Below, piece after piece: positions 11,941-58,520 of a stretch of DNA of 64,000 bases. Below the pieces are notes generated by a model. That model was not told the DNA's origin. It worked only from the letters and a program-made list of their open reading frames with translations, and made no database searches. Position 1 is the stretch's first letter; every line of letters starts with the position of its first letter. The DNA comes from Bacteroidales bacterium (lineage in GTDB: Bacteria > Bacteroidota > Bacteroidia > Bacteroidales > GCA-2748055): assembly GCA_029210585.1 (NCBI GenBank), contig JARGFP010000004.1, positions 14,244-78,243 of the forward strand. Reading direction: 5' to 3'. The translations under genes were made by a program, and so were the position numbers.

Positions 11941-12208
11941 TTCTGCTTCAGGATATGCTAATTCCAGCGTGACTCAATGCCATTTACCCTTGCAGGCTGA
12001 ATATGACACGCTCTCCTCCGATCTTAATCCGCCTGCAAATTAAAAAAAAGTGGGTGATTGACACATACAAAAAATACAATTCAGGGTTCTTTACCACCGA
12101 TTTCTCAAACGTGGACTAACCCCGCGGTAATACCTCAACTTTTTTACAACATAAATGCTAGCTTGGTACACCAAAAATGCTATTTTTACAAGTTAAAGCC
12201 CTGGAGCA

Positions 12209-12230
12209 TTGTTCTGTTGCAACAGAACAA
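12209..12230. promoter_or_regulatory. Perfect 22-bp palindrome TTGTTCTGTTGCAACAGAACAA, candidate operator upstream of regulator 2
   Basis: Read directly: 11 nt plus its exact reverse complement with no spacer. Its 3' end is 66 nt upstream of the ATG at 12296. No U-tract follows on either strand, so it is not terminator-like. Confidence 0.6.
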
Positions 12231-12295
12231 AACACAACATTATATGAACGTTCAACCCAACAACCGGCTTTACAATGATCGATTGAAGATTAACT

Positions 12296-15196: not shown

Positions 15197-15501
15197 TTTC
15201 ATCTGGTTGTTGCGTCTGTTGTATGCCTGCTTCCTGAATGTGTAATAAAACTTCATTGTATATCAACCTGTTGAATCTGCTCTTGTATAGTTTTTGTTAA
15301 GGTACGATTCAATGCCCGTTGAGTATAAGATGTATAACGATATTAGGTGTAGTTCTCAAATTTCATCATATTGTAATTTAAATTTGGTACTTAAGCAATT
15401 CAATACCTGGAACCAATAGGGACAAGTTATCCCGGTGACCGGACCCGGGATTGAATTGTTTATTTAAACTGCCATGATTATTAACTTAAAAAAAACAAAT
15501 T

Positions 15502-17238
15502 ATGAAAAAAGGACTACTCAGTTTGCTGTTGATGACAGCATTTGGACTCTTCACGATGGGTCAGGTGACCTTTAGTGATTATGAGACGGTTAGCCTGGAC
15601 GGATTTCTCGGTTTTGGCGGAGCAACTTTCTCAACTGAAATGAACCCCAATGTGACAGGTATCAACACAAGTGACAATGTGGGAAAGGTTGTAACCGGAA
15701 ATGAACCATGGTCGGGTATCTACTCAGGAAGCTTAGGCGGAACCTTTGATTTTACCACGAACTCCGCATTTACTATGAAAGTCTATTCCGAAAATGCGGG
15801 AGATGTGCTGTTTAAATGTGAAATTGGTGCCCAAAATACCACCAATACAGAGATTATGGCCACCTATACAGATGTAGGAAACTGGCAGGAGCTCACCTTT
15901 GACTTCTCAGGCGGTGCATCGGACACATATGACCAGATCGTGCTCTTCTTTGACATGAATGTCGCAGATGAGGGAGAAGAGTGGTATTTCGATGACATCG
16001 CAGGACCGGACTTCACAGCAGGAGCTGATGTGGATGTTACTTTCCAGATCACGGATCTTGACAATGCAGCTACTACTGTTGAAGTTGAAGTATCCAACGA
16101 CCCGGGAATCATGATCGCGCTCACCAACGACGGAGCCGGTGTATGGACAGCAACTCAAACACTTCCGGGAAATACCTTCATGGATAAGTATACCTGGACA
16201 CTCTACGTGGATGGTACTGCCGTTGCAGACGTAACTGAGAAAAGCCTGGGTGTTGCAGCCGGAGCAGGTACAGCAACTGTTACCCATACATTTGGTGGCG
16301 GTCTGACAGATGAAGCACTTGCTACCTATGTGGGCCTTGATTTTCCACTTATAGATGGTGAGATCGATTTCATCTGGGACGATGCAACAGAATACCCCAT
16401 CTCCCTTCCATTCGGAGCAGAAACATTTACTGATGCAGCTGATTGCAACGGTTATTACAAAGTCGGATGGGACGAAACCGGACTCTATATCCTGGTCGAA
16501 GTGAACGACGATTACCTCTATCCTGCAGGTGACTTTGGTCAACCATGGGAAAAAGATAAAATCGAGGTATACCTCGATATGAATGTGGGTGACCTAAAAG
16601 ATGGAACAGGACCTGGTGCAACAGGAAATGCCGGAACAAACGGTCATTATCAGCTTGCTCCAGCATTCCTGGCAGACTATACAGATGGACCAGGATGGTT
16701 TACCGGAGAGAGAGGATATACCGCCACCACAGATGTAGAGGGTGAAGCATACACTGCAATTACAGAATTCTTTATTCCCTGGGATAACATTCTCGACAGG
16801 AATGCCAATGTAATTTTACCCGATGAGACCATTACACTCGGAATTGGCGTGACCATTGCCGACAATGATGGAGTTGACGGGGGTAACGCCAGGAACCGCC
16901 TTGTTTGGGTGAATGCATCCGATCCTGAAAGCTGGAGCAACATGGATGGTTGCGGAACAATGATGCTTGAAAAGAGTACTGTTGCAGTTGAGAAGTTCGA
17001 GAGTGCACAATTCAGTGTCTACCCGAACCCTGCAAGCGACATTCTCTATATCAGGAATGCAGTAGATGCAAGGACAGTTTCAGTTCACAACATCCTGGGT
17101 GCCAGAGTAATGAATATTTCAGTTGACGGAGGTGAAAGCTTCTCGATCAATACTTCTGAACTTGAAAGAGGTATTTACATGATCAGCGTAAAGACTGAAA
17201 ATGGTTCAGCAGGTCACACTAAATTTGTTGTTGAATAA
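15502..17238 (+). CDS. Secreted carbohydrate-binding protein (N-terminal CBM-like beta-sandwich plus CBM9/DOMON-like module) with T9SS sorting domain; no catalytic motif seen
   Basis: 578-aa ORF with signal peptide MKKGLLSLLLMTAFGLFTMGQ. CBM9-like stretch: DGEIDFIWDDATEYPI...YYKVGWDETGLYILVEVNDDYLY...WEKDKIEVYLDMN...NRLVWVNASD. Por-type tail at the C-terminus. Confidence 0.75.
   Translation: MKKGLLSLLLMTAFGLFTMGQVTFSDYETVSLDGFLGFGGATFSTEMNPNVTGINTSDNVGKVVTGNEPWSGIYSGSLGGTFDFTTNSAFTMKVYSENAGDVLFKCEIGAQNTTNTEIMATYTDVGNWQELTFDFSGGASDTYDQIVLFFDMNVADEGEEWYFDDIAGPDFTAGADVDVTFQITDLDNAATTVEVEVSNDPGIMIALTNDGAGVWTATQTLPGNTFMDKYTWTLYVDGTAVADVTEKSLGVAAGAGTATVTHTFGGGLTDEALATYVGLDFPLIDGEIDFIWDDATEYPISLPFGAETFTDAADCNGYYKVGWDETGLYILVEVNDDYLYPAGDFGQPWEKDKIEVYLDMNVGDLKDGTGPGATGNAGTNGHYQLAPAFLADYTDGPGWFTGERGYTATTDVEGEAYTAITEFFIPWDNILDRNANVILPDETITLGIGVTIADNDGVDGGNARNRLVWVNASDPESWSNMDGCGTMMLEKSTVAVEKFESAQFSVYPNPASDILYIRNAVDARTVSVHNILGARVMNISVDGGESFSINTSELERGIYMISVKTENGSAGHTKFVVE
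17011..17235 (+). other. T9SS C-terminal sorting domain
   Basis: The last 75 aa are FSVYPNPASDILYIRNAVDARTVSVHNILGARVMNISVDGGESFSINTSELERGIYMISVKTENGSAGHTKFVVE. Confidence 0.85.
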
Positions 17239-17247
17239 TCATACCCT

Positions 17248-17287
17248 AAAAAAAAGATGCCGGCATCAGGCCGGCATCTTTTTTTTT
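17248..17287. terminator. Bidirectional rho-independent terminator between convergent genes
   Basis: A8 run (17248-17255), 9-bp GC-rich stem GATGCCGGC / GCCGGCATC with a 5-nt loop (17256-17278), then a T9 run (17279-17287). It lies between the stops at 17238 (+) and 17304 (-). Confidence 0.9.
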
Positions 17288-17303: not shown

Positions 17304-18812
17304 TTATTCTGTGCCGATTTTTGTAAGCGGCAGGTACCAGTTCACCGGATCCAGCAACTTATTCCGGATTGCATCTGCGGTAGCGGGATCTTCGAACTTT
17401 GAGGCTACTTTATCAGCAAGGTATTCAGGTTCTCCCCTTCGGGTGGCTATCCGTACGAGGTCAAACCATCTTTTGCCTTCAAATGCGAGTTCCATTGCTC
17501 TTTCCTGGATGATGAGATCCTCGATATAGAGCATCGGGTTGGCCGTATCGGAGGGAGGGATGACTTTGTTCTCGAGATATGCACGTCCCCTCACACCACG
17601 GTTGGGTGACCATTTCACAAAATTTGATGGTCTTTCGCCTCCCAGTGATGCAATTCCATCATTCAGCAGAACCATCGCCAGGTCATGCTCACCGGTCCTG
17701 TTCAAAGCTTCTGCGAGTAGCATATGCACATCGGCCGCCCTGTAAAGTATGATATCTGCACTGTGCGGGATCCCGCCGTCAATGGAGTATTTATTGATAT
17801 AAGGAGATCCTGCATTCGTTGTATCTATCGAAACACCCATACCACGTGTTTCATCACTGGGATCTCCATTCTGTTGCACCTGGGCGGCAAATGAATCGAT
17901 CAGTACGGTCGCAGGTTTTACCATATAGTCATAGTCGGGATGCATCCACTCTTCCAGGGTGTTTTTCTGACCGTCAACAAATGAGTAAGGCACTGCCGTA
18001 AAAACGGTACCGAACTGGTCCGTTGAATTCAGAAAAATATCTCTCCATGCCTCCTGCTGGTATGCATCATCCACCATAAATACACGCCTGTAAGCTGGCC
18101 CGTCACAGGCGAATTTCAGGTATTTCACAGCGTTATCATAATCTTCCTTCTCCAGGTACAATTCACCCAGCAGTACATAATGATCGACTGTAAAACGCAC
18201 AATATCTTTAGGGTCATCATACACGAGCAACTCCTGGATCAATTTATCGATGATCTCTTCCTTTGAAAGGTATTCTGGGGTGTCACTCGGATCAAATTCC
18301 TCAATGTCGGGCGAAATAAGTCCGACTTCACCATTCAGCTTTGCCAGCATAAAATAGGCCCAGCTCCTCAACGTAACCAGGGCTCCTTCAAAGGTGTAAA
18401 GGCTAAGTGAATCGAAATCCCTGTCAAGTTCCAGTATCTGCGGAAGATTCGGCAGTACCTCGTTTACATTGATGATAAGCTTGTAATAATTCGATGGATC
18501 GATGTATGGATTATCGGGTGACAATTCATGCATACTGATATCAATCATATCCTTATCGGCTCTATCAGTTACGTTCATCTGATCTGATCTGAGTCCGTCC
18601 ACAAGAACCTGATTTTCTGCGATTTCCTGGAGATACACGAAACATCCTGCATATGAAAGAAGGGCATCCAGTTCAGACCTGTAATGGTCCTCGGGAACGA
18701 TCCTTCCTCCAATGGGTGTTTCAAAAATATCCTCGCTGCAGGAAATAAGAAATCCTGAGAATAATAAGGATAAAACGGTTAGCCATGTTACTGATCTCTT
18801 CGTATTCATCAT
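17304..18812 (-). CDS. SusD/RagB-family outer-membrane lipoprotein (module 2)
   Basis: 502-aa ORF with lipoprotein signal LLFSGFLISCSED. C-terminal SusD hallmark ELAFEGKRWFDLVRIATR. It sits immediately downstream of a SusC gene. Confidence 0.9.
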   Translation of the reverse strand: MMNTKRSVTWLTVLSLLFSGFLISCSEDIFETPIGGRIVPEDHYRSELDALLSYAGCFVYLQEIAENQVLVDGLRSDQMNVTDRADKDMIDISMHELSPDNPYIDPSNYYKLIINVNEVLPNLPQILELDRDFDSLSLYTFEGALVTLRSWAYFMLAKLNGEVGLISPDIEEFDPSDTPEYLSKEEIIDKLIQELLVYDDPKDIVRFTVDHYVLLGELYLEKEDYDNAVKYLKFACDGPAYRRVFMVDDAYQQEAWRDIFLNSTDQFGTVFTAVPYSFVDGQKNTLEEWMHPDYDYMVKPATVLIDSFAAQVQQNGDPSDETRGMGVSIDTTNAGSPYINKYSIDGGIPHSADIILYRAADVHMLLAEALNRTGEHDLAMVLLNDGIASLGGERPSNFVKWSPNRGVRGRAYLENKVIPPSDTANPMLYIEDLIIQERAMELAFEGKRWFDLVRIATRRGEPEYLADKVASKFEDPATADAIRNKLLDPVNWYLPLTKIGTE

Positions 18813-18821
18813 GCAGATAGT

Positions 18822-21800
18822 TTATAAGCTTAATTGTACTCCAATAATTACTGAGCGGGCATGCGGCAGTCTGCCATAGTCGATGCCCAGGAAATAAGGA
18901 TCATTCAGGAACATGGTCTCCGGGTCGTAACCTGAATAATTGGTAAATGTGACCAGGTTAGTACCGGTAAGGAAGACAACTGCCCCCTTATTCAGGCCCA
19001 AAAAGCGGTCTGCCTGATAACTTACCCTGAATTCCCTGAATCGCAGATAGGAGCCATCCTCGATCCAGCGATCAGAAAATACATTGTTTCCGGAGGGGTC
19101 CCCGATGGCAGCTCTTGGCAGATCAGCATCTGCAGCTCCCTCGGTCCAGCGATCAAGCACATCAGTACTCTGGTTGGCATAATTGTCCATGGAGACCATC
19201 TGGTGACGTACATAATTATATATGTCATTCCCCAGGCTGTATGTAAACAGCGCGTTGAATTCAAATTTCCCGACATTCAGGGTAGCACCAAATGATCCGA
19301 ACAGATCAGGATTTGGATCGCCAATGATCTGTTTGTCTGCATCATTGATCATGTTATTTTCGTCCACATCATCAAAAATGACATCTCCTCCCTTCATTGG
19401 GCGTCCGTTGGGTCCTGTGACGCCAGCCGCATCTGCATCAGAAGCATAGATTCCAAGTGTTTTGTAGCCATAAAATGCGTTTACCGGAGATCCCTCTGCA
19501 ACAACATATTCTGCTCCGAAAATCTCCCTGGTGAGGAATTCAGTATCCGGACTGATAAAATTCAGGGATGTGATCTTGCTCTCCTGTTTTGTCACAGATG
19601 CTTGCAGTTCGAGACTGGACTGGCCTATAAAAAAGCGTGCATCACCGCCAAATTCGAGTCCTGTAACCGACAGCGCTCCACCGTTGTCGTAATAGTTCGT
19701 AAATCCAAAATTATACGGGAGCTGCTGGTTAATGATCAGGTTATTCACACTGGAGATATAGTAGTCGACATGGAAATTCACCGCTCTTTTTGCCACTGAG
19801 ATATCCAGACCTGTATTGATTGTGGCTTTCTTTTCCACTTCCATATCTTCATTCGGTATGTAGTCAAGTACAGCAACACCAATATTATTATACCTTCTTC
19901 CTGTATATGTAAATTTTGACTGGTTATAGATATTGCTGTACATATTCCCTGTCACCGAATAAGAGGCCCTTAATTTCAGATCATTCAGCCAGGATGAGTT
20001 CTTCAGGAAATCTTCTGAACTCAGTCGCCATGCCCCGAACACCGAGGGATAAAAGTTGTACCTGTTCTGCTGATTAAAGGCAGAAGAACCATCATATGAG
20101 ATCGATGCTCTCAGGTAGTACTTATCCCTGACCTGGTATGCAAAATTCCCAAATAAGGAGACCCATTTCAATTCTCCCAGTTCACCATCACTGATCTTTA
20201 AATATTCATATTCTGCACCCTGTCCAAGACTGGTGAAATCATCCGAAGGGGTATTGAGGTCGATCCCGATTGTATTCTTATAGGAATTTGAGAGCAAGCG
20301 GGCCCCTGCCTGCAGGTTCAGTATATGGCCGGCAGCCATGTTTTTAGTATAGCTCAACGTGGTATGATTCTGCACTGAGCGGAATTCTGTTACCATGTCC
20401 TGCGGACTGTTTCTTGCAGAGTCGATCTGCACAACGCCGACATCGGGTATAAATACATTTACCCTGTCATTATTCACACTGGTCCCGACAACGTTGGAAA
20501 TTTTCAATTCGGGTGTAATTTCGACATCAAGCTTTACCGAGGTCAGCAACTGGAAGCTCCTTTGATAATCTTCGTTGTCATTCGAGATCAGCGCAACCGG
20601 ATTCGTCATGTTGAAAGTACCCACATCGTCGATCGGGTAAAGTTCTGCGCCCATTTCGCTCCTTTCATTCGGATACATCAGGGGTGGTTTCAGTAAAGCT
20701 GAAGTTACAGGATTGTGCTGCACGGTCGGACCACTGTTTGTCATATAGGCATCGGTCAGTGATATTTTAGTATGTGGTGTGATGGTGATCCTGTTCGTGA
20801 TATTGATCTGTCCGTTAAGCCGCAGGTTATACCTTGAGTACCTGTAGTTTTCAAGTGTACCGCCATGCCTCAGGAAGCCTGAGGATATATTGTATGTTGC
20901 GATATCATCTCCACCTTTGAGGAACAGGTAGTACTTCTGCAGGGATGCGGGCCGGAAGATCTCTCCCTGCCAATCGGTATTATTGTTGTATCTGTAGTAC
21001 TCCCTGGAGGATTTGTCACCATTCAACCATGGATACATCTGGTTGATCTGGGTATTGTCATACCCCTCGGACATCAGCAGATCAGAAAAATAGGATTTGT
21101 ACTGATCAGCATTCATCACATCAAGATGATTGGGTGCAAGTGCGATTCCACCATAAGCTTTCAAAAGAATGGATGCACTGGTTTCTTCTTTCTGTTCTGT
21201 ATTTACTGACAGGAAACCGTTCGACCCGACACTTCCAAGTTGCCCTTCTCCGGCTTTAATCACCGAGATATCGACTATATCATTGATATCGACTACATCC
21301 ATCGGGTTTAACAAGTGTCCCTCAAGTATATAATTGTTGGGGTAGTTCACCTCATGCATCATTCCGTCAACAAAAACGACCGGAACATTCCTTGCAAATA
21401 TCGAAGTGATTCCCCTGAGATTCATCCATGAACTGTGTCCGGGCATCCCGGAATGACCGATGATATGCAGACCCGGCACCTTTCCGCTCAGTGTCTGGTC
21501 CCATGAGGAAGCCGCAGAGTTTTCAATTTCAGACCTGGTCACTATTGACACGTTGTTGGTCGCATCCCTGAGCAGACCAGTACCGAAGGGAGAAATATAG
21601 ATCTCATCACTTGAGACATCACCCCTTCGGGTAAGATAGAAATTGATCTCCGTTCTGCCATGACTATAGGCTTCAAGTGTGTGATACCCGGGAAGATTGA
21701 CAAGGATCTTCTCGTTGTCCGATGGCAGTTCCAGTGTAAATGACCCGGATTCACCTGCGGCAGCAGATTCACCTGTAGATACAACGGAGACTACGGCTTG

Positions 21801-21944
21801 CTGAAGAGGTTCACCTGACCCGGATTGAAGTACCTTACCTGTTAAGATGACCCCCTGGTCCTGGGCCATGAGCCCCGAAATTCCCGGGGACAAAGCCAGG
21901 AATGCGATCAGCGTGTTCCGGACAGCTCTTTTTAAATTCATCAT
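18822..21944 (-). CDS. SusC/RagA-family TonB-dependent transporter (module 2)
   Basis: 1040-aa ORF with signal peptide ending LMAQ. CarboxypepD_reg-like segment ILTGKVLQSGSGEPLQQAVVSVV. Plug-like segment NLRGITSIFARNVPVVFVDG. Long beta-barrel region. A 9-bp gap separates it from the downstream SusD gene. Confidence 0.9.
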   Translation of the reverse strand: MMNLKRAVRNTLIAFLALSPGISGLMAQDQGVILTGKVLQSGSGEPLQQAVVSVVSTGESAAAGESGSFTLELPSDNEKILVNLPGYHTLEAYSHGRTEINFYLTRRGDVSSDEIYISPFGTGLLRDATNNVSIVTRSEIENSAASSWDQTLSGKVPGLHIIGHSGMPGHSSWMNLRGITSIFARNVPVVFVDGMMHEVNYPNNYILEGHLLNPMDVVDINDIVDISVIKAGEGQLGSVGSNGFLSVNTEQKEETSASILLKAYGGIALAPNHLDVMNADQYKSYFSDLLMSEGYDNTQINQMYPWLNGDKSSREYYRYNNNTDWQGEIFRPASLQKYYLFLKGGDDIATYNISSGFLRHGGTLENYRYSRYNLRLNGQINITNRITITPHTKISLTDAYMTNSGPTVQHNPVTSALLKPPLMYPNERSEMGAELYPIDDVGTFNMTNPVALISNDNEDYQRSFQLLTSVKLDVEITPELKISNVVGTSVNNDRVNVFIPDVGVVQIDSARNSPQDMVTEFRSVQNHTTLSYTKNMAAGHILNLQAGARLLSNSYKNTIGIDLNTPSDDFTSLGQGAEYEYLKISDGELGELKWVSLFGNFAYQVRDKYYLRASISYDGSSAFNQQNRYNFYPSVFGAWRLSSEDFLKNSSWLNDLKLRASYSVTGNMYSNIYNQSKFTYTGRRYNNIGVAVLDYIPNEDMEVEKKATINTGLDISVAKRAVNFHVDYYISSVNNLIINQQLPYNFGFTNYYDNGGALSVTGLEFGGDARFFIGQSSLELQASVTKQESKITSLNFISPDTEFLTREIFGAEYVVAEGSPVNAFYGYKTLGIYASDADAAGVTGPNGRPMKGGDVIFDDVDENNMINDADKQIIGDPNPDLFGSFGATLNVGKFEFNALFTYSLGNDIYNYVRHQMVSMDNYANQSTDVLDRWTEGAADADLPRAAIGDPSGNNVFSDRWIEDGSYLRFREFRVSYQADRFLGLNKGAVVFLTGTNLVTFTNYSGYDPETMFLNDPYFLGIDYGRLPHARSVIIGVQLSL

Positions 21945-22026
21945 GAAGTCAGTATTTAGTCGTTATTTTTTTCAAATATTTTGTCTGAGATATATTACAA
22001 CTCCAATGACCATCTCAGGGATTCAC

Positions 22027-23529
22027 CTAAACTTTGGGCGTAAATCTTACATAATCCCAGAATAGACCACCGGGCCTGACACTGACCAGGCGTATGGTAT
22101 GCCGCTCCGTTTCAGTGAAACTGACATCACCGAATTTAAGCGGACTTCCGCCCCAGGTTCCGTCCTCAAGATCTACGTTTCCAATTCGCTCGCCATCGAC
22201 GTAGACAGCCATTTCGGGGAAGCCGCTTCCCATGAAAAAGAAGCCTGACAATTCATAGTCGCCCTTCGGGACTTTCTTTGTGGTGATCTCTATCTCGAAA
22301 TGACCATTCATGTTCAGGCAGTCATCATCCATCAGGTTATGCGACGGTTTCAGGTAATACAACATGAACTCTCCTTCCCACTTGATAAATTCGAATGTGT
22401 TTTCACCATCATAGAACCGCTGATAGTAGTTCAGGTAATAAGGCCCCTGCTGAAGGTCAAAAAAGTCTGTAGTCTGGAAGATGATCGTCTGAGGATCTGG
22501 TGGTTTATTCTCCAGCAGCGTATTCACAGTATGGATGGCGCCGTTCTTGGCTGGAATATTGGACAGGTCATAATAGAATCCTGTAAAACTCGAATCTGTG
22601 GGATTGATCCTGTAATCGTCATCCACCTTGATATTCAGATTATTGTCAAATGTAATCAGGTAATAAATATCATTGGGTGCCAGGTCGTTAAAGTAATAGG
22701 TCTCATTCAGACAATGGTAGACCATATATTTGTACAGACCATTTTCAAGGGCAGTAAGATCTTCACTGTCGCTGTAACGGTCGATCAGGTCGTCTATGGA
22801 ATTTATGCCATGTCTCTGGTAAAGGGTATCCGGTACTGCCAGGAGTGTATAACGTGTACGCGCAGTTGCGGAGCCATACGGAAATTCGATGATATTGAGC
22901 GTGTCTGATAAACCGGTCACTTCCAGTCCATCCAGGAAGATCGAATATCCCGGATAGGTTGCCAGTTCTTCCACAACACTTCCCGTTACTGGTTCCAGGA
23001 CATGATCGATATGATGCACATACCCGTTGGAAGTTGGTATATCCCTTTTGATGATGATCGCTGTCTTGTTGATCAATATCTCGATCCCTGAGAATTCAGA
23101 CGCCACATAATCGCCCAGCCCATTCTTATAAAGCAATGCACCCTGCCCGATACTCCCGGCTGTGATCTGACCCTGGAACAGGTGATTGTATACCAGGTCT
23201 TCGAGCATCTCTTTGTCGATCTCTGTATATGATGAGACCTTTTTTGACTCGTAATATGCCCGCATGGCTTCGTCGGTGGGAAGCAGCAGTGTAAAAGGTC
23301 CCCTGACCCTCAGCAGGTTTTCGATGCCCGTATATTCAAGCAGGTTGCCAAACTCGCTGAATTGTTCAGGATTATTGTACACATAATCGGTGATCACCAT
23401 CTCTGTGGATTTAAGTTCCCACTCAATAACATCATCACCACATTGCACCATGAAGGTCATGATGGCCAATAAAACACCAAGCCTAAATGGGATGCTGTAC
23501 CACTGTTTCCTGTATCCTGTTGTTTCCAT
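22027..23529 (-). CDS. Fasciclin (FAS1) domain lipoprotein with an extra C-terminal beta-rich domain (module 2)
   Basis: 500-aa ORF with lipoprotein-like signal LAIMTFMVQCGDD. Two FAS1 units: FTLLLPTDEAMRAYY...VYNHLFQG...NGYVHHIDHVLEP and YTLLAVPDTLYQ...MVYHCLNE...NGAIHTVNTLLE. The C-terminal ~130 aa (GDYELSGFFFMG...LFWDYVRFTP) do not look like FAS1. Confidence 0.82.
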   Translation of the reverse strand: METTGYRKQWYSIPFRLGVLLAIMTFMVQCGDDVIEWELKSTEMVITDYVYNNPEQFSEFGNLLEYTGIENLLRVRGPFTLLLPTDEAMRAYYESKKVSSYTEIDKEMLEDLVYNHLFQGQITAGSIGQGALLYKNGLGDYVASEFSGIEILINKTAIIIKRDIPTSNGYVHHIDHVLEPVTGSVVEELATYPGYSIFLDGLEVTGLSDTLNIIEFPYGSATARTRYTLLAVPDTLYQRHGINSIDDLIDRYSDSEDLTALENGLYKYMVYHCLNETYYFNDLAPNDIYYLITFDNNLNIKVDDDYRINPTDSSFTGFYYDLSNIPAKNGAIHTVNTLLENKPPDPQTIIFQTTDFFDLQQGPYYLNYYQRFYDGENTFEFIKWEGEFMLYYLKPSHNLMDDDCLNMNGHFEIEITTKKVPKGDYELSGFFFMGSGFPEMAVYVDGERIGNVDLEDGTWGGSPLKFGDVSFTETERHTIRLVSVRPGGLFWDYVRFTPKV

Positions 23530-23555
23530 AACTTAATTCACTTAATCGTTAAATA

Positions 23556-25022
23556 TCACCTGTCGTAGAATGGATTCTGTTCCAGGTTCCTGTTGTACTG
23601 TATCTCATCCTGGTGAATCGGGAGGTAGTAGCTCATGGTATCAATCACCTTGGTCCTCATGATCGCCAGTTCCTGCGCATCAGAAGCCTTCCCAAGCAGG
23701 ATGTCAACAAGCCGCTGTTTGTCTTCAAAGCCATCTTTCTTCGCAAACCTCAAAACGTCGAACCACCTTTTGCCCTCACCGGCAAATTCGCGACCCCGTT
23801 CGGCAAGCAAAACATTTCTGAAATCATCAAGTGAGAAGGTCGGAATGTGGGTCACCCCTGCCCTTTCAGCAACGGTTGTGACAAGGTTGTTTGCATTCTC
23901 AAGATCACCCAGTTCAGCCAGTGCTTCAGCCTTCATCAGCAGGATGTCGGCATACCTGTAATAGATAAAATTCGCATCACGCTCATTATCCGTTCTCACC
24001 CTGAAACCCGCACCGGTCTCGTCGGTCCCCCGGTATTTCCAGATCGGCCCTCTTTTACGTAAGAACCTGATATCAGCAGTTACATTGTAAGCGATTTTTT
24101 CTATTGCTACATTGATCTGACTGAGCAGGCTGTAGTACATCGGGTTTTCCTGTCCCTCGAGATCGTCATCGTACTGGATTTCGAAGAGGCTTTCCGACAT
24201 GGAGTTGCCAGGATAATAGAGGTCGAACCAGTCTGTATTTGGTTCCAGCGAGAAGATCCCGGTATTGATCACTGAATCGCAATAGGTAACACATTCAGTA
24301 TATCTTTCCTGCCAGAGCAGTACATCAGCCAGCAGGGCCTGGATCGCGTATTTATTTGCTCTTCCCTTGTAATCGACCAGGTCACCCCTGAATTGGTCGG
24401 TAAATGCCAGCGCGCTTGCCCGCTTCAGATCATCGACCACCTGGTTCAGGACAACATTCTCCGGACTCTTTGGAATGTAAAAGCCAACCGTATCTGAGAT
24501 CGTTGGCTCAAGAACGAGCGGAACATCCTTCCAGATTCGCACCAGGTAGAAATAACTCAGTGACCTGAGGAAGAGCATTTCAGCTTCAATTCCCTCCAGT
24601 TCCCTGTTGGATATAGACTTGTCCACCTCCTGCATGAGAGGCGCATAGTACATGACTGTATTGGCCAGGTTGATGGTATTGTAGTAAGCTCCCCATCTGA
24701 CCACCCAGTTGGTTGATGATATATTGTTGTTACCGATCCTGCTGTAATCACTGAATTCGCCTCCGGCAACAGAAATGAAATCGGCTCTGACTTCTCCGAG
24801 CAGGAAGGATTTGATGGTGGTTTCCCGCATGGCATTATAGGTAGCTGCCATCACTGCCATCACATCATCACTGGTTTTCCAGAATTCCTGCTTGATCAGT
24901 TCACTTTCTGGTTCAATATTCAGCCAGTCATTACATCCGGTATGACCAATGATCATGATGGTTAGCAATACCGGTATTACGATCCTGAATTTTTTTGATA
25001 TTCTTTTCATAACGATTTGCAT
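23556..25022 (-). CDS. SusD/RagB-family outer-membrane lipoprotein (module 1)
   Basis: 488-aa ORF with lipoprotein signal LTIMIIGHTGCNDW. SusD hallmark REFAGEGKRWFDVLRFAKK. The start may be the internal MKRISKK. Confidence 0.9.
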   Translation of the reverse strand: MQIVMKRISKKFRIVIPVLLTIMIIGHTGCNDWLNIEPESELIKQEFWKTSDDVMAVMAATYNAMRETTIKSFLLGEVRADFISVAGGEFSDYSRIGNNNISSTNWVVRWGAYYNTINLANTVMYYAPLMQEVDKSISNRELEGIEAEMLFLRSLSYFYLVRIWKDVPLVLEPTISDTVGFYIPKSPENVVLNQVVDDLKRASALAFTDQFRGDLVDYKGRANKYAIQALLADVLLWQERYTECVTYCDSVINTGIFSLEPNTDWFDLYYPGNSMSESLFEIQYDDDLEGQENPMYYSLLSQINVAIEKIAYNVTADIRFLRKRGPIWKYRGTDETGAGFRVRTDNERDANFIYYRYADILLMKAEALAELGDLENANNLVTTVAERAGVTHIPTFSLDDFRNVLLAERGREFAGEGKRWFDVLRFAKKDGFEDKQRLVDILLGKASDAQELAIMRTKVIDTMSYYLPIHQDEIQYNRNLEQNPFYDR

Positions 25023-25036
25023 TATCCTTTGGCTGT

Positions 25037-28000
25037 TTAGAATGTGATGCTAAGTCCCAGGGTGTAACGAATACTCGGTGGTGTCCTGCTGTAGTCCTTC
25101 GGCAGCGAGTCGGGCCTTGAAGGAAGCGGTACTTCAGGGTCCTGCCCCGAGTAACTGGTCCACGTATACACGTTGTAGCCTGTAAGGTAAACCCGCATCT
25201 GCGAAAGATTCAGATTCCTTGAGATACTTTTCGGAAAGGTGTAGGAGACGGATGCTGACTTGAACCTGACATAGGATCCATCTTCAACGAACCGGCTTGA
25301 GCCGAGCCAGTTGAAACCTTCATTGTGCAGTGCCCGGGGCATGTTTGTTGAATCACCTGATGTACGCCATCTCCAGTTGGTTGCCTTGCTCTGGTTATCA
25401 TAGGTATACATGTTCTCCGTGTCCATTCTTGTCTGGTTGATCACTTCCTGGCCGACCCTGAAATAGAGGTGGAAGTTCACCACCAGGCCCTTGTACGAAA
25501 ATCTGGGTCCGAATCCTCCCATAAAATCGGGGTTGGTGTCTCCAAGGTAGAACAGATCGAGCTCATCAATTTTTCCATCAAAATTCCGATCCAGGTATTG
25601 GGCATCACCAGCTTCGAAAATATAGGATGAGGACCCACCCATGATCATCTGCATCGGTTCCGTCTGTCCAAGTTCATACATGATCTCTCCATCGGCATTC
25701 CGTACATAGGTAGCCTCTTCATTAGCGTATACACCCTGGAAATTATATCCGAAGAAACCTCCAATCGGGCTTCCGGGAACGATGGCGATCTTGTAATTTC
25801 CGTTGTCCAGCATGTTCCCGTATTCCGTACTAAAGTTTTCCGGCAATTGCAGGACTACGTTCTGGTTACGTGAGATGTTGAAATTGAAACTGAATTTGAA
25901 ATTCTCACCGTCCACTACCCGGTAATCCACCATGGCCTCTATCCCCTTGTTCTGTAATTTGCCGTCATTGGTATTGTAGCTGCTGAAACCTGTGCTGCTC
26001 GGGATGCCGGTATTCCTCAGGAAGAGATTGTGGGTGGTCTTGTCATATACATCAAATTCGACATTCAGCCTGTTGTTAAGCCCGTAAAATGAGAATCCCA
26101 GGTTCAGCTGTTCGATGTTCTCCCACCGAAGCCCGGTAAGTTCCATATTGTTGGGCCTCACACCTGCCATTTCCAGGTAGGAATACTGCACCCCTGCCCC
26201 ATACGTGTTGAAGTAGAGGTAGTTGTCTGTGGGAGCGTTGCCGGAGATCCCCCAACTGCCCCGTATTCTGAAATCGTTGATAAAGAACGCATTTTCCAGG
26301 AAGGACTCCTCGGAGATTCGCCATGCGGCAGTAACGGCAGGAAAGATCCCCCAACGCACTTGACTGCTGTATTTAGAATTCCCTTCAAGTTTAGCTCCGA
26401 CAGAGAAGATATACTTGTCCTGGAATTTGTAATAGGCATTCATAAAAGCACCGACAGAGCGGTACCTGGATGGCCAGGCCCACATTCCCCTGTTATTCTT
26501 ATCACCAACAATGGTATAATCATACTCCGAAAAGGCGTTGCTTGTCTCCACATGGAACCCACGTGTGGCCGACATCTCAGCATCAAGTTGCGTAAGTATC
26601 TTCAGGTCATGCGTCTCATTGACAATAGGTGTATAAATAAATTTCGAGATTGCGTAGATCGAAGATTTGTTGGTGAATTCATTGGTTGCGAGCCTGGTGA
26701 TGTTGTCGTAAAAATTATACCCTATCGCCTTGAAAGGAAGGAATTTTTCCATTTTTGAATCGAAGACATCCAGGGTAATGGTTGAATTCATTCTCAGTTT
26801 TTCGGTAATCCTGTAGTCCAGGTTGAACCCGGCCCGAAGGTTGTCCCTGTATCGCTTATGTCTTCCAAGATTCGCAAAAGCCACCGGGTTGACCATCTGC
26901 CGTGCAGTTCCCTGGAGCGTGTTCAACGGGGTGAAGTATTCATCATATACATTGTTGCTGGTGTCCCTTACATAGATGGACAGGTTTGGCATCTTCCGGT
27001 AAGCCATGGCCCGCAGACTCTTGTTTCCCGAATATTCTCCATCCTCGAAATCATAATTGGCATCCTGGTCGTAGCGTGTATACAGGATATCACTGGAGAA
27101 TTTCAGCTTCGAGGAGATCGTATAGTCAAATGCTGTTCCTATATTTAGTCTTTTCAACCTGGTACCAATTGTTGTACCTCCCTCATCCTGGTAACCGACA
27201 GAGAGTTTATAACCAGATTTTTCACCTCCGCCGCGCACCGAGAAGTGATGCTGCTGGGTAAATGCTTTCCTTGTAATTGCCTCTACCCAGTTAGTGTTCT
27301 GGGCATAGTTCCAGTACTCCTCCCAATCCTTGTCATAAGCAATCTCCCTGGAAGCCGGATCTGACTGGAAGAAGTTATTTCTCTCATCAAGATTATAATG
27401 TGATTCTGCAATCAGCCTGGCGTAACCTCCCCCGTCAAGCATCGGAATCGGGGCTGGCTCGTGGGCCCGGGTCAGTTTCGAAGTATATTCAAAGATCGGC
27501 TTCGAGCGGGTACCCCTTTTGGTTTTGATCATCAGGACACCATTGGAGGCCTTCGATCCCCAAATGGCTGTCGCTCCGGCATCCTTCAACACTTCGATCG
27601 ATTCAATGTCTTCCGGGGCCACATCTATCAGGTTACCGAATTTCTCCACATCAGCACTTCCAAAATCAAATCCCTCATCGATCTGGGTGTCGTAGGGTAT
27701 TCCATTGATCACGATGAGCGGACTGTTCCTGGCATTCAGTGTTGCTGTACCCCTGATCCGTATATTCAGACCTGCACCCGGGTCGCCGGAAACTGCTGAG
27801 ATATCGACATTACCGAGTCGTCCCTGGAGCATCTCCTCAACTGTGGTGGTCATACTGGAGTTCAGCCCTTCGAACTCGATCCTGGCCACCGATGTGGCAC
27901 GGTCCCTGATGGACTGGACTCCGTCGTTTCCCATCTTTTGACCGACCACAGTCACTTCATCCAGTTCCAACGAAGACTCACCCAGTTCAAGATCGATCCT

Positions 28001-28309
28001 TGTCCGGTTATTCACATCCACGATCTTCTTCTCAAAACCAAGCATTGAGTACTGGATACTTGCATTTCCTGAACTGACGCTGATCACATAGTTGCCGTTC
28101 AAATCGGTAATGGTCCCATTCAGGAATCTGCCATTCTTGTCGATCTCCACAATATTCACCCCCATGAGTGGTTCGTCATAGTCCGCGTCCATCACTGTTC
28201 CACTGACCACGAAATTTTGCGCGGAAAGATTTGCAGCTATGCCCAGGATAATGACCGCTAGCCAGAGTTTTGGTAGTAATTTGTTCATAGTCTGATGTTT
28301 GAAAAACAA
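25037..28309 (-). CDS. SusC/RagA-family TonB-dependent transporter (module 1)
   Basis: 1090-aa ORF with signal ending ANLSAQ. CarboxypepD_reg-like FVVSGTVMDADYDEPLMGVNIVE. Plug-like LNIRIRGTATLNARNSPLIVINGIPY...GSKASNGVLMIKTKRG. C-terminal aromatic residue in ...LGLSITF. Confidence 0.9.
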   Translation of the reverse strand: MFFKHQTMNKLLPKLWLAVIILGIAANLSAQNFVVSGTVMDADYDEPLMGVNIVEIDKNGRFLNGTITDLNGNYVISVSSGNASIQYSMLGFEKKIVDVNNRTRIDLELGESSLELDEVTVVGQKMGNDGVQSIRDRATSVARIEFEGLNSSMTTTVEEMLQGRLGNVDISAVSGDPGAGLNIRIRGTATLNARNSPLIVINGIPYDTQIDEGFDFGSADVEKFGNLIDVAPEDIESIEVLKDAGATAIWGSKASNGVLMIKTKRGTRSKPIFEYTSKLTRAHEPAPIPMLDGGGYARLIAESHYNLDERNNFFQSDPASREIAYDKDWEEYWNYAQNTNWVEAITRKAFTQQHHFSVRGGGEKSGYKLSVGYQDEGGTTIGTRLKRLNIGTAFDYTISSKLKFSSDILYTRYDQDANYDFEDGEYSGNKSLRAMAYRKMPNLSIYVRDTSNNVYDEYFTPLNTLQGTARQMVNPVAFANLGRHKRYRDNLRAGFNLDYRITEKLRMNSTITLDVFDSKMEKFLPFKAIGYNFYDNITRLATNEFTNKSSIYAISKFIYTPIVNETHDLKILTQLDAEMSATRGFHVETSNAFSEYDYTIVGDKNNRGMWAWPSRYRSVGAFMNAYYKFQDKYIFSVGAKLEGNSKYSSQVRWGIFPAVTAAWRISEESFLENAFFINDFRIRGSWGISGNAPTDNYLYFNTYGAGVQYSYLEMAGVRPNNMELTGLRWENIEQLNLGFSFYGLNNRLNVEFDVYDKTTHNLFLRNTGIPSSTGFSSYNTNDGKLQNKGIEAMVDYRVVDGENFKFSFNFNISRNQNVVLQLPENFSTEYGNMLDNGNYKIAIVPGSPIGGFFGYNFQGVYANEEATYVRNADGEIMYELGQTEPMQMIMGGSSSYIFEAGDAQYLDRNFDGKIDELDLFYLGDTNPDFMGGFGPRFSYKGLVVNFHLYFRVGQEVINQTRMDTENMYTYDNQSKATNWRWRTSGDSTNMPRALHNEGFNWLGSSRFVEDGSYVRFKSASVSYTFPKSISRNLNLSQMRVYLTGYNVYTWTSYSGQDPEVPLPSRPDSLPKDYSRTPPSIRYTLGLSITF

Positions 28310-28334
28310 TGCAAGTTAAACCTTAATATCACAT

Positions 28335-30491
28335 CTATTTAGCTGGTTCAGAAAGTAATACAGAGTTGATTTTGTGAAGGGAACCTCTTTCTATGAGCCG
28401 GTTCGCGTCAGTGTGCTCCACGGTCACATCCTGTCCGGTCATATCCGTGACGGTGAGACTGTGGATCGCATTGGATATATCAACAGATTCATAAAATATG
28501 TCGGATCCGATAATGGCGTCTTTCCGGTGGGTAGGAAGTGTTCCTGAAAATTCGCCATCATCGAAAACTGTTGTACCCCTTACAAAGTGGTAATAGACAA
28601 ATTCTTTTAATTCATCCGCATCAGTGGGAAGCAGACCGGCAATTACTGCATCTGCAAGTGCCTGGTTGGTGGGTGCAAATACGGTCCACTGGTTCAACTG
28701 GTTCATGAAATTAATCCTTGGAAATCTCACTCCAGGAATCTCATAATCGGCCTGGATACTGTCGATCAGGTTCAGCGTATCCAGCATCGTCCCGAAGTCA
28801 GAAAGCTCCGGATCATTCAGGATATATTCGGCAGTATTATAGGGAGCCTTGATAGAATTGTCGATATAGAAGAGGTTTCCGTTCCTGTTGCTGGGCACCT
28901 TTTCCACCACAAGGCTTACATCACCTTCAACCTGGTTTCCACCTCCAATGATTTCACCGTTATTATAATATATATAATTATCGGATGCCATCCGGATGAA
29001 ACCCTCACCCAGGAAATCCTCATAATTCCCGGCATGGATGTAGTCCTCAACAAAATCCTGTATGTCCAGTACTTCCATCTCGTTCCAGACACCGTCCGAA
29101 CCCATGATCTCAATGATGATATCTCCATCCACTTCATTATGCCTGATGCCATATTCCAGGAGCTCTGCATTGCTGGGAGCAAAAAGGGTCATTGTGATAT
29201 CAGGACGGGTAAGGCTATTCAGGACACCTGATTCTTCAAGTGCGTAAAGGAATGTTGTATACTCACGCTGGTAGAAGATATCTCCGGGGACACAGGTAAA
29301 GGCATTGGGCTCCATCAAGCTGTTCATGAAATAGATCACCCCGTTTCCACATCCTCGTGCTCCGCCAATGTCGGCATTCACATCAATCGTGATCTCATCA
29401 CCGTAATAATTCAGAAAGCGATCTTCAATTTTAGAAGGAAGACTCAGGTAGGTATTCAGGTGAGACTGGAGCAGGTAAACCAGGAATAACTGCGGTACAC
29501 TGTCAAGGGATGAATATGACTGGAGTACCGTATTGTCGAGAAAGTCCTGCAGGACATTGTCATACGGGATGAATGCAGTAAAGGAATACAGCATTTTTGC
29601 TTCTGCCGAAGAGGACTCAGGACCCCACTCATCAGCGAAGTCACTGATCTGACTGTAGCTCTTCCTGTACCTCCGCTCATTGTCCTCATTAAAACCGGGA
29701 TTCACGTAAGTGGCAAATCTCTGGGCGATGTCATAGAATACCCCAAACTGATCCTGGTTGTCTTTGAGATATGTTTCAATGGTCTCCACCGGTTCAACCA
29801 CCCTGTCTAGATAATAGATAAATCCGCTCGATGTACGCACTTCCGCCTCGGTTACCATGGCATCGTGCCACTGCATTCCGCTCCAGGAGCTGTTCGGATA
29901 CATAAAAAGGTAATCAGAACCCTTGGGATCACCAAAATAATCCTCAAAAAACTCGGTTGTAAACAGGGGGATCATCGTGGTGCGTCGGTACAGCAACAAC
30001 TCCTCGTCCTTGAATTCAGGATTATACCTGACCGTCTCCTTATATTCCAAAGGAACAGCATAGGTCTCCTTCCTGTGGAACAATGTCCCGTACTCACCTT
30101 TAGGATCCTGCAGCTCTCCCCAGGCATACTCATACATCAATTGTTCACGTGACCTGGGGTTGATCAGGATGTGCTGACCGAAAAGCTCTTCTGCAGCATC
30201 TGTTGACAGCGCATCCACACTGCTGACGCCAATCTTATCGAAATAAGCTTCGAATGAACTGTCACTGGGCACAAACAAGGTGAAAAGCTGATTTTCAATC
30301 GACACCCTGTATTCAGCCTTATCCATCAGGGCAAGGAAAATATCGTAGTTTCCCTCACCCTCAAGGGTCTCAATATTGGAACCTCCCAGCCATGGTGGGT
30401 CCTCATATCTTTCGTGAGGATCAGAACATTGTCTGGTGTACGTTGTCAATACCAGCAACAGTACGCTGCTAAACAGTGAAATTCTTCTCAT
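28335..30491 (-). CDS. Multi-FAS1 (fasciclin) domain lipoprotein (module 1)
   Basis: 718-aa ORF with signal/lipobox-like VLTTYTRQCSD. FAS1 H1/H2-type motifs repeat: FTLFVPSDSSFEAYF...SGFIYYLDRVVEP, then MTLFAPSNAELLEY, then WTVFAPTNQALADAV...FVYYHFVRG...GSLHKINSVLL. Confidence 0.82.
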   Translation of the reverse strand: MRRISLFSSVLLLVLTTYTRQCSDPHERYEDPPWLGGSNIETLEGEGNYDIFLALMDKAEYRVSIENQLFTLFVPSDSSFEAYFDKIGVSSVDALSTDAAEELFGQHILINPRSREQLMYEYAWGELQDPKGEYGTLFHRKETYAVPLEYKETVRYNPEFKDEELLLYRRTTMIPLFTTEFFEDYFGDPKGSDYLFMYPNSSWSGMQWHDAMVTEAEVRTSSGFIYYLDRVVEPVETIETYLKDNQDQFGVFYDIAQRFATYVNPGFNEDNERRYRKSYSQISDFADEWGPESSSAEAKMLYSFTAFIPYDNVLQDFLDNTVLQSYSSLDSVPQLFLVYLLQSHLNTYLSLPSKIEDRFLNYYGDEITIDVNADIGGARGCGNGVIYFMNSLMEPNAFTCVPGDIFYQREYTTFLYALEESGVLNSLTRPDITMTLFAPSNAELLEYGIRHNEVDGDIIIEIMGSDGVWNEMEVLDIQDFVEDYIHAGNYEDFLGEGFIRMASDNYIYYNNGEIIGGGNQVEGDVSLVVEKVPSNRNGNLFYIDNSIKAPYNTAEYILNDPELSDFGTMLDTLNLIDSIQADYEIPGVRFPRINFMNQLNQWTVFAPTNQALADAVIAGLLPTDADELKEFVYYHFVRGTTVFDDGEFSGTLPTHRKDAIIGSDIFYESVDISNAIHSLTVTDMTGQDVTVEHTDANRLIERGSLHKINSVLLSEPAK

Positions 30492-30845
30492 TTTAGTTCA
30501 GTAGTTTGATTAAATCCACAAAAGGAACCTCACCGTTCTCCCTCCAGCCTGGAGTTCCTATGCTCCATGTCTGATTTTACCTCCTGCTCTATCTTACTGC
30601 TGATCAATAAGTTCCGGAATGAAACGGAAGATCCCGATTGTAAACATATTGCAATATGAATATTTCAGTGCATATACACCAATTAATTATCACATCTTAT
30701 ACTTAACACGACCGATTTGAAACCTCAACAAAAACCATACAGAATTCAATTACACTCTGGAATACATCAATTGAAATTAGAAAATGCAAATACTTGCTGA
30801 TTCAATTGAATTTCATATATTTCGAAATACATAATTTTATATTAT

Positions 30846-35491: not shown

Positions 35492-35499
35492 ATTTGTAA

Positions 35500-38604: not shown

Positions 38605-38669
38605 ATTTTAATCGTTAATTCATCACTAAAAGGTATTGTCGAATACATGCGTAGAGGTTGAGTCAAGCG

Positions 38670-38713
38670 CTGTTGCTATTGGAATACACGTCTGTTGTTA
38701 TTGGAATACACGA
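38670..38713. repeat. 22-bp tandem duplication spanning the GH16 stop codon
   Basis: ctgttgctattggaatacacgt (38670-38691) and ctgttgttattggaatacacga (38692-38713). The second copy carries the true gene end (...VFQ, TAA). The first copy carries TAG at the equivalent position. Confidence 0.85.
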
Positions 38714-39810: not shown

Positions 39811-39813
39811 TAT

Positions 39814-39857
39814 AAAAAAAAATATGAGTCATGGCATTTGATTGCCATGGCTCATAT
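39814..39857 (-). terminator. Intrinsic terminator/attenuator between the PKD-lipoprotein gene and the GH16 gene
   Basis: The minus strand reads ATATGAGCCATGGCA-ATCAAA-TGCCATGACTCATAT. This is a 15-bp stem with one G-U pair and a 6-nt loop, followed by a T9 run (plus-strand A run at 39814-39822). It ends 4 nt before the GH16 ATG at 39810. Confidence 0.82.
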
Positions 39858-39867
39858 TAATTAAAGA

Positions 39868-58367: not shown

Positions 58368-58520
58368 GTACATGAAGCAAAGTCATCGCCGGTTCCATCC
58401 GACTACTTTTCTGAGCGGTCAGGTCTGCCCATGCCCTGCGGTCAGTTACCCGGGAGTAAAAATATGCCGCCATTCTCCCAAATGATGCGTATCTTCGTAG
58501 CTTCACCCTTTCGCAACCTT

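Follow-up and report, generated by a model that had tools for sequence, protein, structure and literature searches.

Paired SusC and SusD proteins (SusCD) are the main route of complex-nutrient uptake in Bacteroidota, and many of the polysaccharide utilization loci (PULs) predicted in these bacteria are enzyme-free and functionally unassigned. SusCD loci without enzymes are already known, and so are tandem SusCD pairs, which limits the surprise that a locus with both features can offer. Two SusC/D pairs occur in the Xus clusters of Prevotella and Bacteroides, which are xylan PULs. Two pairs also stand side by side in the xylan locus PUL-XylL of Bacteroides ovatus (PMC4491172), and the chitin locus ChiUL of Flavobacterium johnsoniae contains two SusC/D pairs and a key enzyme, ChiA, which is secreted by the type IX secretion system (T9SS) (PMC5127042). 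In this study, we analyzed a 64,000-nucleotide stretch of a Bacteroidales genome (assembly GCA_029210585.1, contig JARGFP010000004.1, positions 14,244 to 78,243), here called the window and numbered from its first letter, and in it a cassette of six genes at 17304-30491, which encodes two SusC/SusD transporters and two lipoproteins with fasciclin (FAS1) domains, named FAS718 and FAS500 after their lengths.

With the xylan PULs this cassette shares two diverged, neighboring SusC/D pairs, whereas those PULs contain xylanases of glycoside hydrolase (GH) family 10 or other families, a hybrid two-component system (HTCS) regulator and surface glycan-binding proteins (SGBPs) of the Ig-like or inactive-GH10 type, lack fasciclin proteins and have another gene order. 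An initial annotation of the window had described the six genes as two FAS-SusC-SusD modules without a recognizable carbohydrate-active enzyme (CAZyme). Our comparison across Bacteroidia revealed that the conserved unit is not one FAS-SusC-SusD module, but a whole, old and fixed six-gene cassette. As overall explanation we favor, at slightly better than even odds, an enzyme-free FAS1-SusCD importer of probable β-glucan fragments that are cut by T9SS enzymes.

Results

Gene content and organization of the cassette

A check of the open reading frames placed the six genes at 17304-30491 on the minus strand in the order FAS718-SusC1-SusD1-FAS500-SusC2-SusD2 with tight spacing, and coordinates, strand and lengths agreed with the initial annotation, as did the FAS1, SusC and SusD identities in Pfam and NCBIfam profile searches. 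FAS718 (28335..30491), the first gene of the operon, encodes a lipoprotein of 718 aa with four FAS1 domains. It is followed by the gene of a SusC/RagA-type TonB-dependent transporter, SusC1 (25037..28309), which reached 694 bits with TIGR04056 (cut-off 368 bits) and carries the SusC signature TIGR04057, and by SusD1 (23556..25022), a SusD-family lipoprotein of 488 aa and the putative lid of SusC1 (SusD_RagB 113.5 bits, SusD-like_3 56 bits). FAS500 (22027..23529) encodes a lipoprotein of 500 aa with two FAS1 domains (residues ~40-340) and a C-terminal β-sandwich (~345-500) resembling carbohydrate-binding modules (CBMs) of families 6 and 35. The series ends with a second SusC/RagA-type transporter, SusC2 (18822..21944; TIGR04056 529 bits), and the divergent SusD-family lipoprotein SusD2 (17304..18812; 502 aa; SusD_RagB 58.8 bits). 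Hence, the adjacent pairing of a susC-like with a susD-like gene by which PULs are recognized is present twice. Both SusC proteins matched the Pfam families CarboxypepD_reg and Plug, and in SusC1 the TonB β-barrel was matched as well. The TTG start listed for SusC1 at 28309 adds seven residues which are absent in most orthologs; as most of these have 1083 aa, the true start is probably ATG 28288, yielding a protein of 1083 aa. The N-terminal regions read ...IGHTGC/NDW in SusD1 and ...FLISC/SEDIFE in SusD2.

The genes are separated by 25, 14, 26, 82 and 9 bp. An intrinsic terminator 3′ of SusD2 (17248..17278, minus strand) acts in both directions, closing the operon as well as the convergent CBM9 gene. 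Its stem is a perfect, GC-rich 9-bp helix (GAUGCCGGC/GCCGGCAUC) with an A-run on the 5′ side and eight U on the 3′ side, and the fold pairs both runs too (folding free energy −25.4 kcal/mol; z −5.5 versus shuffled sequences). Due to the gaps of 9-82 bp and this one strong terminator, the six genes are one operon. The divergent intergenic region of 354 bp upstream of FAS718 (30492..30845) is the presumed promoter region of the cassette. A scan for consensus terminators and sigma-70 promoters gave no more matches than shuffled sequences and missed the terminator at 17248-17278; Bacteroidota-type promoters were outside its reach.

A catalytic domain was found in none of the six proteins by Pfam, NCBIfam and PDB sequence searches, to which structure comparison was added for both FAS proteins. 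This covers the C-terminal extra domain of FAS500; a catalytic hit there or elsewhere in either FAS protein, which the initial annotation had named as refuting its view, is thus absent.

SusC1 and SusC2 are 25% identical and SusD1 and SusD2 23%, thus no nearer to each other than to the unrelated neighboring SusC3/SusD3. The two modules are therefore old, and a recent duplication of one module is ruled out by these identities, as the initial annotation had it. In the PDB, both SusC proteins have their best match in 8aa4 (E 5e-94 and 7e-85), which we take to be a Bacteroides glycan utilisome transporter, far above RagA. Prediction of the substrate from PDB similarity was tried and rejected: both SusC proteins match the same chain 8aa4 and the SusD matches are generic, so that they do not discriminate.

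The order of the genes can be read as FAS-SusC-SusD twice, with a FAS1 gene preceding SusC in each module, or as FAS718 plus SusC1-SusD1-FAS500 plus SusC2-SusD2. The first, taken by the initial annotation, holds as one way of parsing; FAS500 also directly follows SusD1, and the second grouping places it at the usual position of an SGBP. Extra FAS500 paralogs lie downstream of SusD2 in two of the loci compared below (L048, L075), and neither grouping is decisively favored.

Conservation of the cassette across Bacteroidia

Full-length homologs of FAS718 and FAS500 formed families of 359 and 416 clusters, respectively, with members from Marinilabiliales, Prolixibacteraceae, Salinivirgaceae and further metagenome-assembled genomes (MAGs) of Bacteroidales. 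Gene neighborhoods were inspected around FAS500 homologs of 41-85% identity at 90 loci, five of which were uninformative. The complete six-gene series was present at 24 of the 85 informative loci, another 38 were consistent with it up to the end of the contig, and 23 carried solo FAS500 paralogs. All 24 complete copies have identical order and orientation, and in each of them every gene has its own window counterpart as best match, down to identities of 42-60%; this includes the SusD2 orthologs, which stand at the same position in 24/24. The complete or partial copies (62/85) come from Marinilabiliales, Prolixibacteraceae and other Bacteroidales. The cultured Saccharicrinis sp. FJH62 carries the cassette, and the nearest relative of the window is a Bacteroidales MAG with 97% identity of the FAS718 protein. 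A FAS718 sequence identical to that of the window had no database record.

Conserved FAS1-SusC-SusD synteny in other Bacteroidota, which the initial annotation had proposed to look for, is thus found in all loci that are complete or consistent up to the contig end. Its two modules are correct as a gene order and understate the extent of the conserved unit. A description of a FAS1-SusCD locus was not found in the open-access literature, although one elsewhere is still possible. It is apparently an undescribed variant of the Sus-like system and not a new kind of system.

A distant, seven-gene form, FAS-SusC-SusD-FAS-FAS-SusC-SusD, with a third FAS gene and 21-36% identity, was seen in one Bacteroidales MAG and several rumen Prevotella MAGs (L019 2671-18038, L020 2024-18882, L021 and L026). 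In the Bacteroidales MAG (L019) it is preceded by a T9SS/lamin-tail protein and followed by GH5 and GH2 genes. A solo FAS718 homolog with 46% identity is located in a complete Bacteroidales genome (CP070654.1; L007 10001-12151), with a SIS-domain gene on one side and the gene of a tricorn-like protease on the other, and SusC/SusD are absent nearby. At L052 7600-12428, L074 9914-14988 and L077 4469-9454, a solo FAS500 paralog adjoins a protein of unknown family (~297 aa) and a TonB-dependent transporter that is shorter (781-847 aa) than the long SusC type and does not belong to it. These loci suggest a pairing of FAS500-type lipoproteins with other TonB-dependent transporters as well.

Properties of the FAS1 lipoproteins

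Both proteins exceeded the gathering score of the Pfam Fasciclin family (PF02469, 22 bits), FAS718 with 84.5 bits in two stretches and FAS500 with 85.1 bits. AlphaFold2 models were built from the family alignments (mean predicted confidence, pLDDT, 88.9 for FAS718 and 86.6 for FAS500) and compared with the PDB by Foldseek. Over its full length (715-722 columns), FAS718 superposes on periostin and TGFBIp, which have four FAS1 domains (E 4e-23), and no fold other than FAS1 was significant for it in this comparison. The FAS1 pair of FAS500 matches the fasciclin I pair and TGFBIp (E 1e-15), and single FAS1 domains reached target TM-scores of 0.82-0.86. FAS1-type carotenoid-binding proteins (8c18, 22iy) were also among the matches. 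The C-terminal sandwich of FAS500 has the β-jelly-roll fold of CBM6/35/36, matching CBM6 (2cdp, 2cdo), CBM35 (2w1w), CBM36 (7ay3), MiXBM and 7ehg with E 6e-6 to 7e-5 and target TM-scores of 0.61-0.69. When this domain alone was searched against 1.84 billion representatives, 89 cluster representatives were found, nearly all of them C-termini of FAS proteins of ~500 aa; further weak matches map to Big_7, Golvesin_C or CBM regions of long proteins and are uninformative on the ligand. Judged from the model, the extra domain points towards carbohydrate binding.

Both FAS proteins have a signal peptide ending in a cysteine, and Cys22 of FAS718 and Cys30 of FAS500 are invariant in 42-43 homologs. In most FAS500 homologs it is followed by K/E-E-D-P, and at least two acidic residues are found at positions +1 to +5 in 30/42. 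This motif resembles the lipoprotein export signals S(D/E)3 and K-(D/E)2 of Bacteroidetes (PMC6222051). An invariant lipobox cysteine and a conserved position beside susC/D are features of SusE/F-like SGBPs, and both are present here; the exposure itself is predicted. A role of the FAS proteins as non-catalytic lipoproteins and ligand-capture partners, as proposed in the initial annotation, is therefore plausible, given the invariant cysteine, the acidic motif and CBM6/35-like domain of FAS500 and the position conserved across orders.

FAS1 is a classical adhesion fold, and the closest structures, i.e., periostin, TGFBIp and fasciclin I, would also suit adhesins which bind to particles, other cells or a host surface and do not deliver ligands, so that the SusCD proteins would be ordinary importers that are merely co-transcribed. 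An abundant FAS1 transcript of a flavobacterial symbiont was interpreted in this sense as an adhesion factor (PMC10199937), and homologs without SusCD exist for FAS718 (L007) and FAS500 (23 loci). However, that the FAS genes keep a fixed order and close spacing with SusC/SusD across orders speaks for a shared machine. Moreover, FAS500 contains a CBM-like module, and several of its solo paralogs have TonB-dependent transporters or CBM9/T9SS proteins as direct neighbors. Adhesion to insoluble glycans and ligand capture are also compatible with each other. We consider it rather improbable that the FAS proteins act as adhesins instead of capturing ligands.

Recurrent neighbors of the cassette

The flanks vary by lineage and include tricarboxylic acid cycle genes, CrcB, transposases and phosphate transporters, which indicates that the cassette moves as a unit and does not need a fixed neighbor. 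CAZymes flank it in the window and in about half of the lineages, not in the rest, and lie inside the operon in 0/24 complete copies. A Pfam census was taken of the proteins that flank 27 distinct cassette loci (87 in total). In it, the T9SS sorting domain (Por_Secre_tail) was commonest (18/87), followed by CBM9_1 (10), Big_2 (9), CBM_6 (6), CBM_35_2 (6), GH5 (5) and CotH (3). Thereby, the suggestion of the initial annotation that degradation is outsourced to T9SS enzymes gains support, as T9SS domains, CBM9, GH5-CBM35-CBM6 (5-6 cases) and CotH recur. According to BLAST, the CBM9 and GH5 proteins of the flanks are true homologs of the window proteins across the functional domains.

In the window, the gene convergent with SusD2 encodes a T9SS-sorted CBM9 protein without a catalytic domain (15502..17238, plus strand; CBM9_1 72 bits, Por_Secre_tail 52 bits). 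In L027, L044, L046, L057, L060, L093, L099 and L103, the cassette has as neighbor a homolog whose CBM9 domain is 35-42% identical, and full-length orthologs elsewhere follow a laminarin-type SusC3/SusD3 or lie between SusD and a GH16-CBM6-T9SS gene. The GH5-CBM35-CBM6 enzyme (1577..4279, minus strand), which has a T9SS sorting domain in Pfam, is a candidate for an outsourced depolymerase. Its full-length orthologs (44-55%) adjoin the cassette in L010/L108, L037, L053, L057 and L088, and the same architecture is found in L027. The CBM6 of this enzyme is nearest to the β-glucan-binding CBM6 modules 1uxz, 5fui and 1w9s. A third recurrent family is represented by a secreted CotH protein (9448..11940, minus strand; CotH 179 bits, signal peptide, weak Por_Secre_tail of 17 bits), and CotH genes adjoin cassettes in L043, L044, L045/46 and L108. 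All three genes are located downstream of the cassette in the window, and the recurrent GH16-CBM6 is absent from it. In Saccharicrinis sp. FJH62, the cassette is followed by CBM9/T9SS, GH3 and GH5-CBM6-CBM35-T9SS genes in this order. Among the relatives with a long contig, the closest one (36.9 kb) has, together with the cassette, GH16-PKD-CBM6-T9SS, GH5-T9SS, a GH149 homolog, a TIM-barrel protein and a sugar transporter of the major facilitator superfamily (MFS), as well as CBM9-T9SS (69% identical), CotH (63%) and an ortholog of regulator Reg2 (74%), in an arrangement that differs from the window.

These neighbors also bear on whether the cassette imports a glycan at all. A nutrient of another kind could be peptides or proteins, as in RagAB, or a hydrophobic compound, for example a carotenoid like that bound by the FAS1 protein AstaP. 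In agreement with this, none of the lineages has a CAZyme within the six-gene cassette, peptide importers of the SusCD type are known, and RagA and carotenoid-binding FAS1 proteins appear among the PDB and the structural matches, respectively. On the other hand, the 87-protein census contained no recurrent peptidase or lipid-metabolism genes, and in particular no peptidase family of the kind associated with RagAB-type systems. The recurrent neighbors are carbohydrate-binding or carbohydrate-active, FAS500 has its CBM6/35-like domain, and the scores of both SusC proteins are far higher with 8aa4 than with RagA. Import of a non-glycan nutrient is thus very improbable.

Further observations were made in the flanks. 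The block CotH(-)-Reg2(+)-CBM9-T9SS(+), window 9448-17238, is kept as a unit in the closest relative (L108 1916-9956); its secreted CotH protein is kinase-like. A protein of 757 aa with CBM9_1 and DUF5916 (58431-60704) has a 76% ortholog upstream of the cassette of the closest relative (L010 2-1717), where only an esterase gene separates it from FAS718, and is another CBM9-type protein tied to the gene set of the cassette. On a marine metagenome contig, a GH87-like α-1,3-glucanase gene (L060 14787-17429; CatAgl_D1/D2, Big_2, ricin-type lectin, T9SS sorting domain) is located between the cassette and the CBM9-T9SS gene. Together with the β-1,3-/β-1,6-glucanases elsewhere, this enzyme would fit fungal or microbial cell-wall glucans as a target.

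The β-1,3-glucan super-locus and the substrate

The window is a β-1,3-glucan super-locus with GH16, GH17-like, GH30, GH81 and GH149 genes and also GH5. β-Glucan CAZymes are encoded on both sides of the cassette, so that the lack of a CAZyme reported in the initial annotation applies to the six genes and not to the locus. A canonical laminarin-type PUL, SusD3-SusC3-GH16-PKD, occupies 33935-41367 on the minus strand. It is followed by a GH149 β-1,3-glucan phosphorylase (45043-48513; NCBIfam 1661 bits) and a GH81-CBM6-PKD-Big_7-cadherin protein of 1469 aa with a T9SS sorting domain (53903-58312). The stretch 33935-58312 also contains an MFS sugar transporter, two GH2_C-like TIM-barrel proteins, two MFS_2 transporters and a GH17-like protein.

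We propose that the operon could form a self-contained outer-membrane machine for capture and import, made up of two different SusC/SusD transporters together with FAS718 and FAS500. The FAS lipoproteins would act as SGBPs and keep the polymer or large fragments of it near the SusCD lids. Depolymerization would be carried out by T9SS-secreted enzymes and binders encoded elsewhere, often nearby, such as GH5-CBM35-CBM6, GH16-CBM6, GH81-CBM6 and the CBM9 protein, and the two SusCD pairs might import different classes or sizes of oligosaccharides. We consider this general architecture, i.e., a PUL variant with FAS1 lipoproteins in the role of SGBPs and depolymerization left to T9SS enzymes, to be likely. 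The substrate would be a β-glucan, β-1,3-based and maybe in an insoluble or branched form which the neighboring laminarin PUL does not handle. The initial annotation was too pessimistic in stating that the substrate cannot be inferred, as the recurrent neighbors are β-glucan genes: GH16-CBM6-T9SS, GH3 and GH149 recur, together with the CBM9 protein that elsewhere follows laminarin-type SusCD. Being drawn from gene association, the assignment to β-glucan has an almost even chance of being correct.

Several points weigh against this proposal. Surface exposure, glycan binding by the FAS proteins, their physical association with SusCD, the substrate and the division of labor between the transporters are what we infer. 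FAS1 is, to our knowledge, not known as a glycan binder in bacteria. The sandwich of FAS500 has no sequence match to Pfam CBM_6, CBM_35 or CBM_35_2, and in FAS718 the acidic motif after the cysteine is less pronounced (22/43). The best PDB match of the GH5 enzyme, an uncharacterized Geobacillus GH5 (GE32) for which the only paper gives no activity, points to no specificity. With the canonical laminarin-type PUL already in the window, a second and a third β-glucan importer need explaining. Of about 21 distinct complete cassettes, about 9 are surrounded by nothing but unrelated housekeeping genes over the 3-5 kb of visible flank, so that the link to T9SS and β-glucan is frequent and not universal, and PUL islands could yield adjacency without a common function. 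The cassette of L060 adjoins the GH87-like α-1,3-glucanase, and the distant L019 form adjoins GH5 and GH2.

The last four of these points, and a solo FAS500 pair ~6 kb from a GH29 fucosidase gene (L078), would agree with a glycan importer for another substrate, such as an α-glucan, a mannan, another cell-wall or exopolysaccharide glycan or glycoprotein glycans, whose adjacency to β-glucan genes reflects the clustering of carbohydrate loci in genomic islands. Such an importer is unlikely, as the same set of three or four accessory families turns up, with varying orientations and positions, in at least 12 lineages, the CBM9 accessory is itself linked to laminarin-type SusCD and GH16 elsewhere, and the neighboring GH16, GH3 and GH149 are β-glucan enzymes.

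Regulation

Two large regulators flank the region of the cassette in the window. Regulator 3 (Reg3; 30846..33767, plus strand), divergent from FAS718, has Reg_prop and Y_Y_Y domains and a LuxR-type C-terminus (Pfam, NCBIfam), and Regulator 2 (Reg2; 12296..15196, plus strand), the middle gene of the CotH-Reg2-CBM9 block, has Reg_prop, Y_Y_Y and a LuxR/GerE helix-turn-helix (HTH) domain (Pfam). They are paralogs with 32% identity over the full length. A third large regulator with Reg_prop and Y_Y_Y is located at 6220-9195 on the minus strand; the LuxR/GerE-type C-terminus was noted for Reg2 and Reg3. Pfam histidine-kinase or receiver domains were found in none of the three, which therefore look like HTCS sensor domains fused straight to an HTH.

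The initial annotation had named Reg3 as the obvious control candidate, for which comparison provides no support. A Reg-like gene was not found near the complete cassettes in the stretch read (~3 kb upstream, ~5 kb downstream), and a Reg3 ortholog is missing from the 36.9-kb contig of the closest relative, on which the Reg2 ortholog lies ~20 kb from the cassette. The 87-protein census revealed no recurrent regulator family; an NrtR/AraR-like Nudix regulator is present in L044 (family 3/87) and one LytTR two-component pair in L014. Reg3 is thus a possible controller of the cassette, and Reg2 is at least as good a candidate. No family was matched in an Rfam scan of the whole window, hence no known riboswitch or leader. 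The upstream regions of 23 FAS718 orthologs are AT-rich and share no common motif, except that of the closest relative (L010), which resembles that of the window.

Discussion

The cassette adds a new type of accessory lipoprotein, made of FAS1 repeats with or without a CBM-like module and recurrently linked to T9SS-secreted, CBM-rich proteins. It is experimentally tractable and is present in the cultured Saccharicrinis and in many lineages from sediment, groundwater, digesters and the rumen. With its fixed architecture of six genes, its FAS1/CBM-like lipoproteins and its recurrent T9SS partners, it is well suited as an object of experiments. A broader view, which we hold only tentatively and which is more doubtful than the β-glucan assignment, is that the cassette represents a widely distributed, undescribed class of Bacteroidia utilisomes. 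FAS1 proteins would here take the place of Ig-like SGBPs as capture arms of two cooperating SusCD transporters, and the cassette would be a portable, enzyme-free importer of insoluble β-glucan or cell-wall fragments, plugged into the genome's own CBM-bearing T9SS enzymes. If true, the utilisome concept would be extended to FAS1 scaffolds and bacterial FAS1 domains would obtain a first defined role in glycan capture. Support would also be gained for the view that secreted depolymerases and a portable importer for insoluble β-glucans are separate modules, a division of relevance to carbon turnover in the rumen and in anoxic sediments.

Among described systems, ChiUL is the closest functional analogue. 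It likewise has two separate SusC/D pairs, and its depolymerase ChiA, a multi-domain protein that attacks an insoluble polymer, is released by the T9SS and is not a lipid-anchored protein. ChiUL differs in that its locus includes enzymes (GH18, GH20), a two-component regulator and a transporter of the inner membrane and lacks FAS1 proteins, whereas the conserved unit described here has neither enzyme nor regulator, contains two FAS1 lipoproteins and is loosely linked to its T9SS partners.

With the RagAB/BT2263-64-type systems, the cassette has in common SusCD, accessory lipoproteins and an operon without a glycoside hydrolase. Those systems are peptide-linked, while the neighbors of the cassette and the CBM-like domain point to glycans, and the similarity to RagA is below that to 8aa4. 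The FAS1 fold is shared with the multi-FAS1 proteins periostin/TGFBIp/fasciclin I and with MPT70 and Rhodobacter Fdp, which are bacterial proteins of a single FAS1 domain, in a tandem of four domains in FAS718 and as a pair in FAS500. The identity to these proteins is 13-25%, and the FAS proteins of the cassette differ from them as predicted outer-membrane lipoproteins of Gram-negative bacteria which are coupled to TonB-dependent transporters and, in FAS500, fused to a CBM-like module.

Finally, the cassette resembles the canonical Sus system and the utilisomes in its SusC barrel, SusD lid and adjacent predicted surface lipoproteins, with FAS500 following susD1 and ending in a CBM-like sandwich. 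Canonical SGBPs of the SusE/F type are strings of Ig-like or β-sandwich domains, while the scaffold of the cassette is the α/β wedge fold of FAS1. Compared with canonical Sus, the cassette has one FAS gene before susC and no surface glycoside hydrolase lipoprotein.

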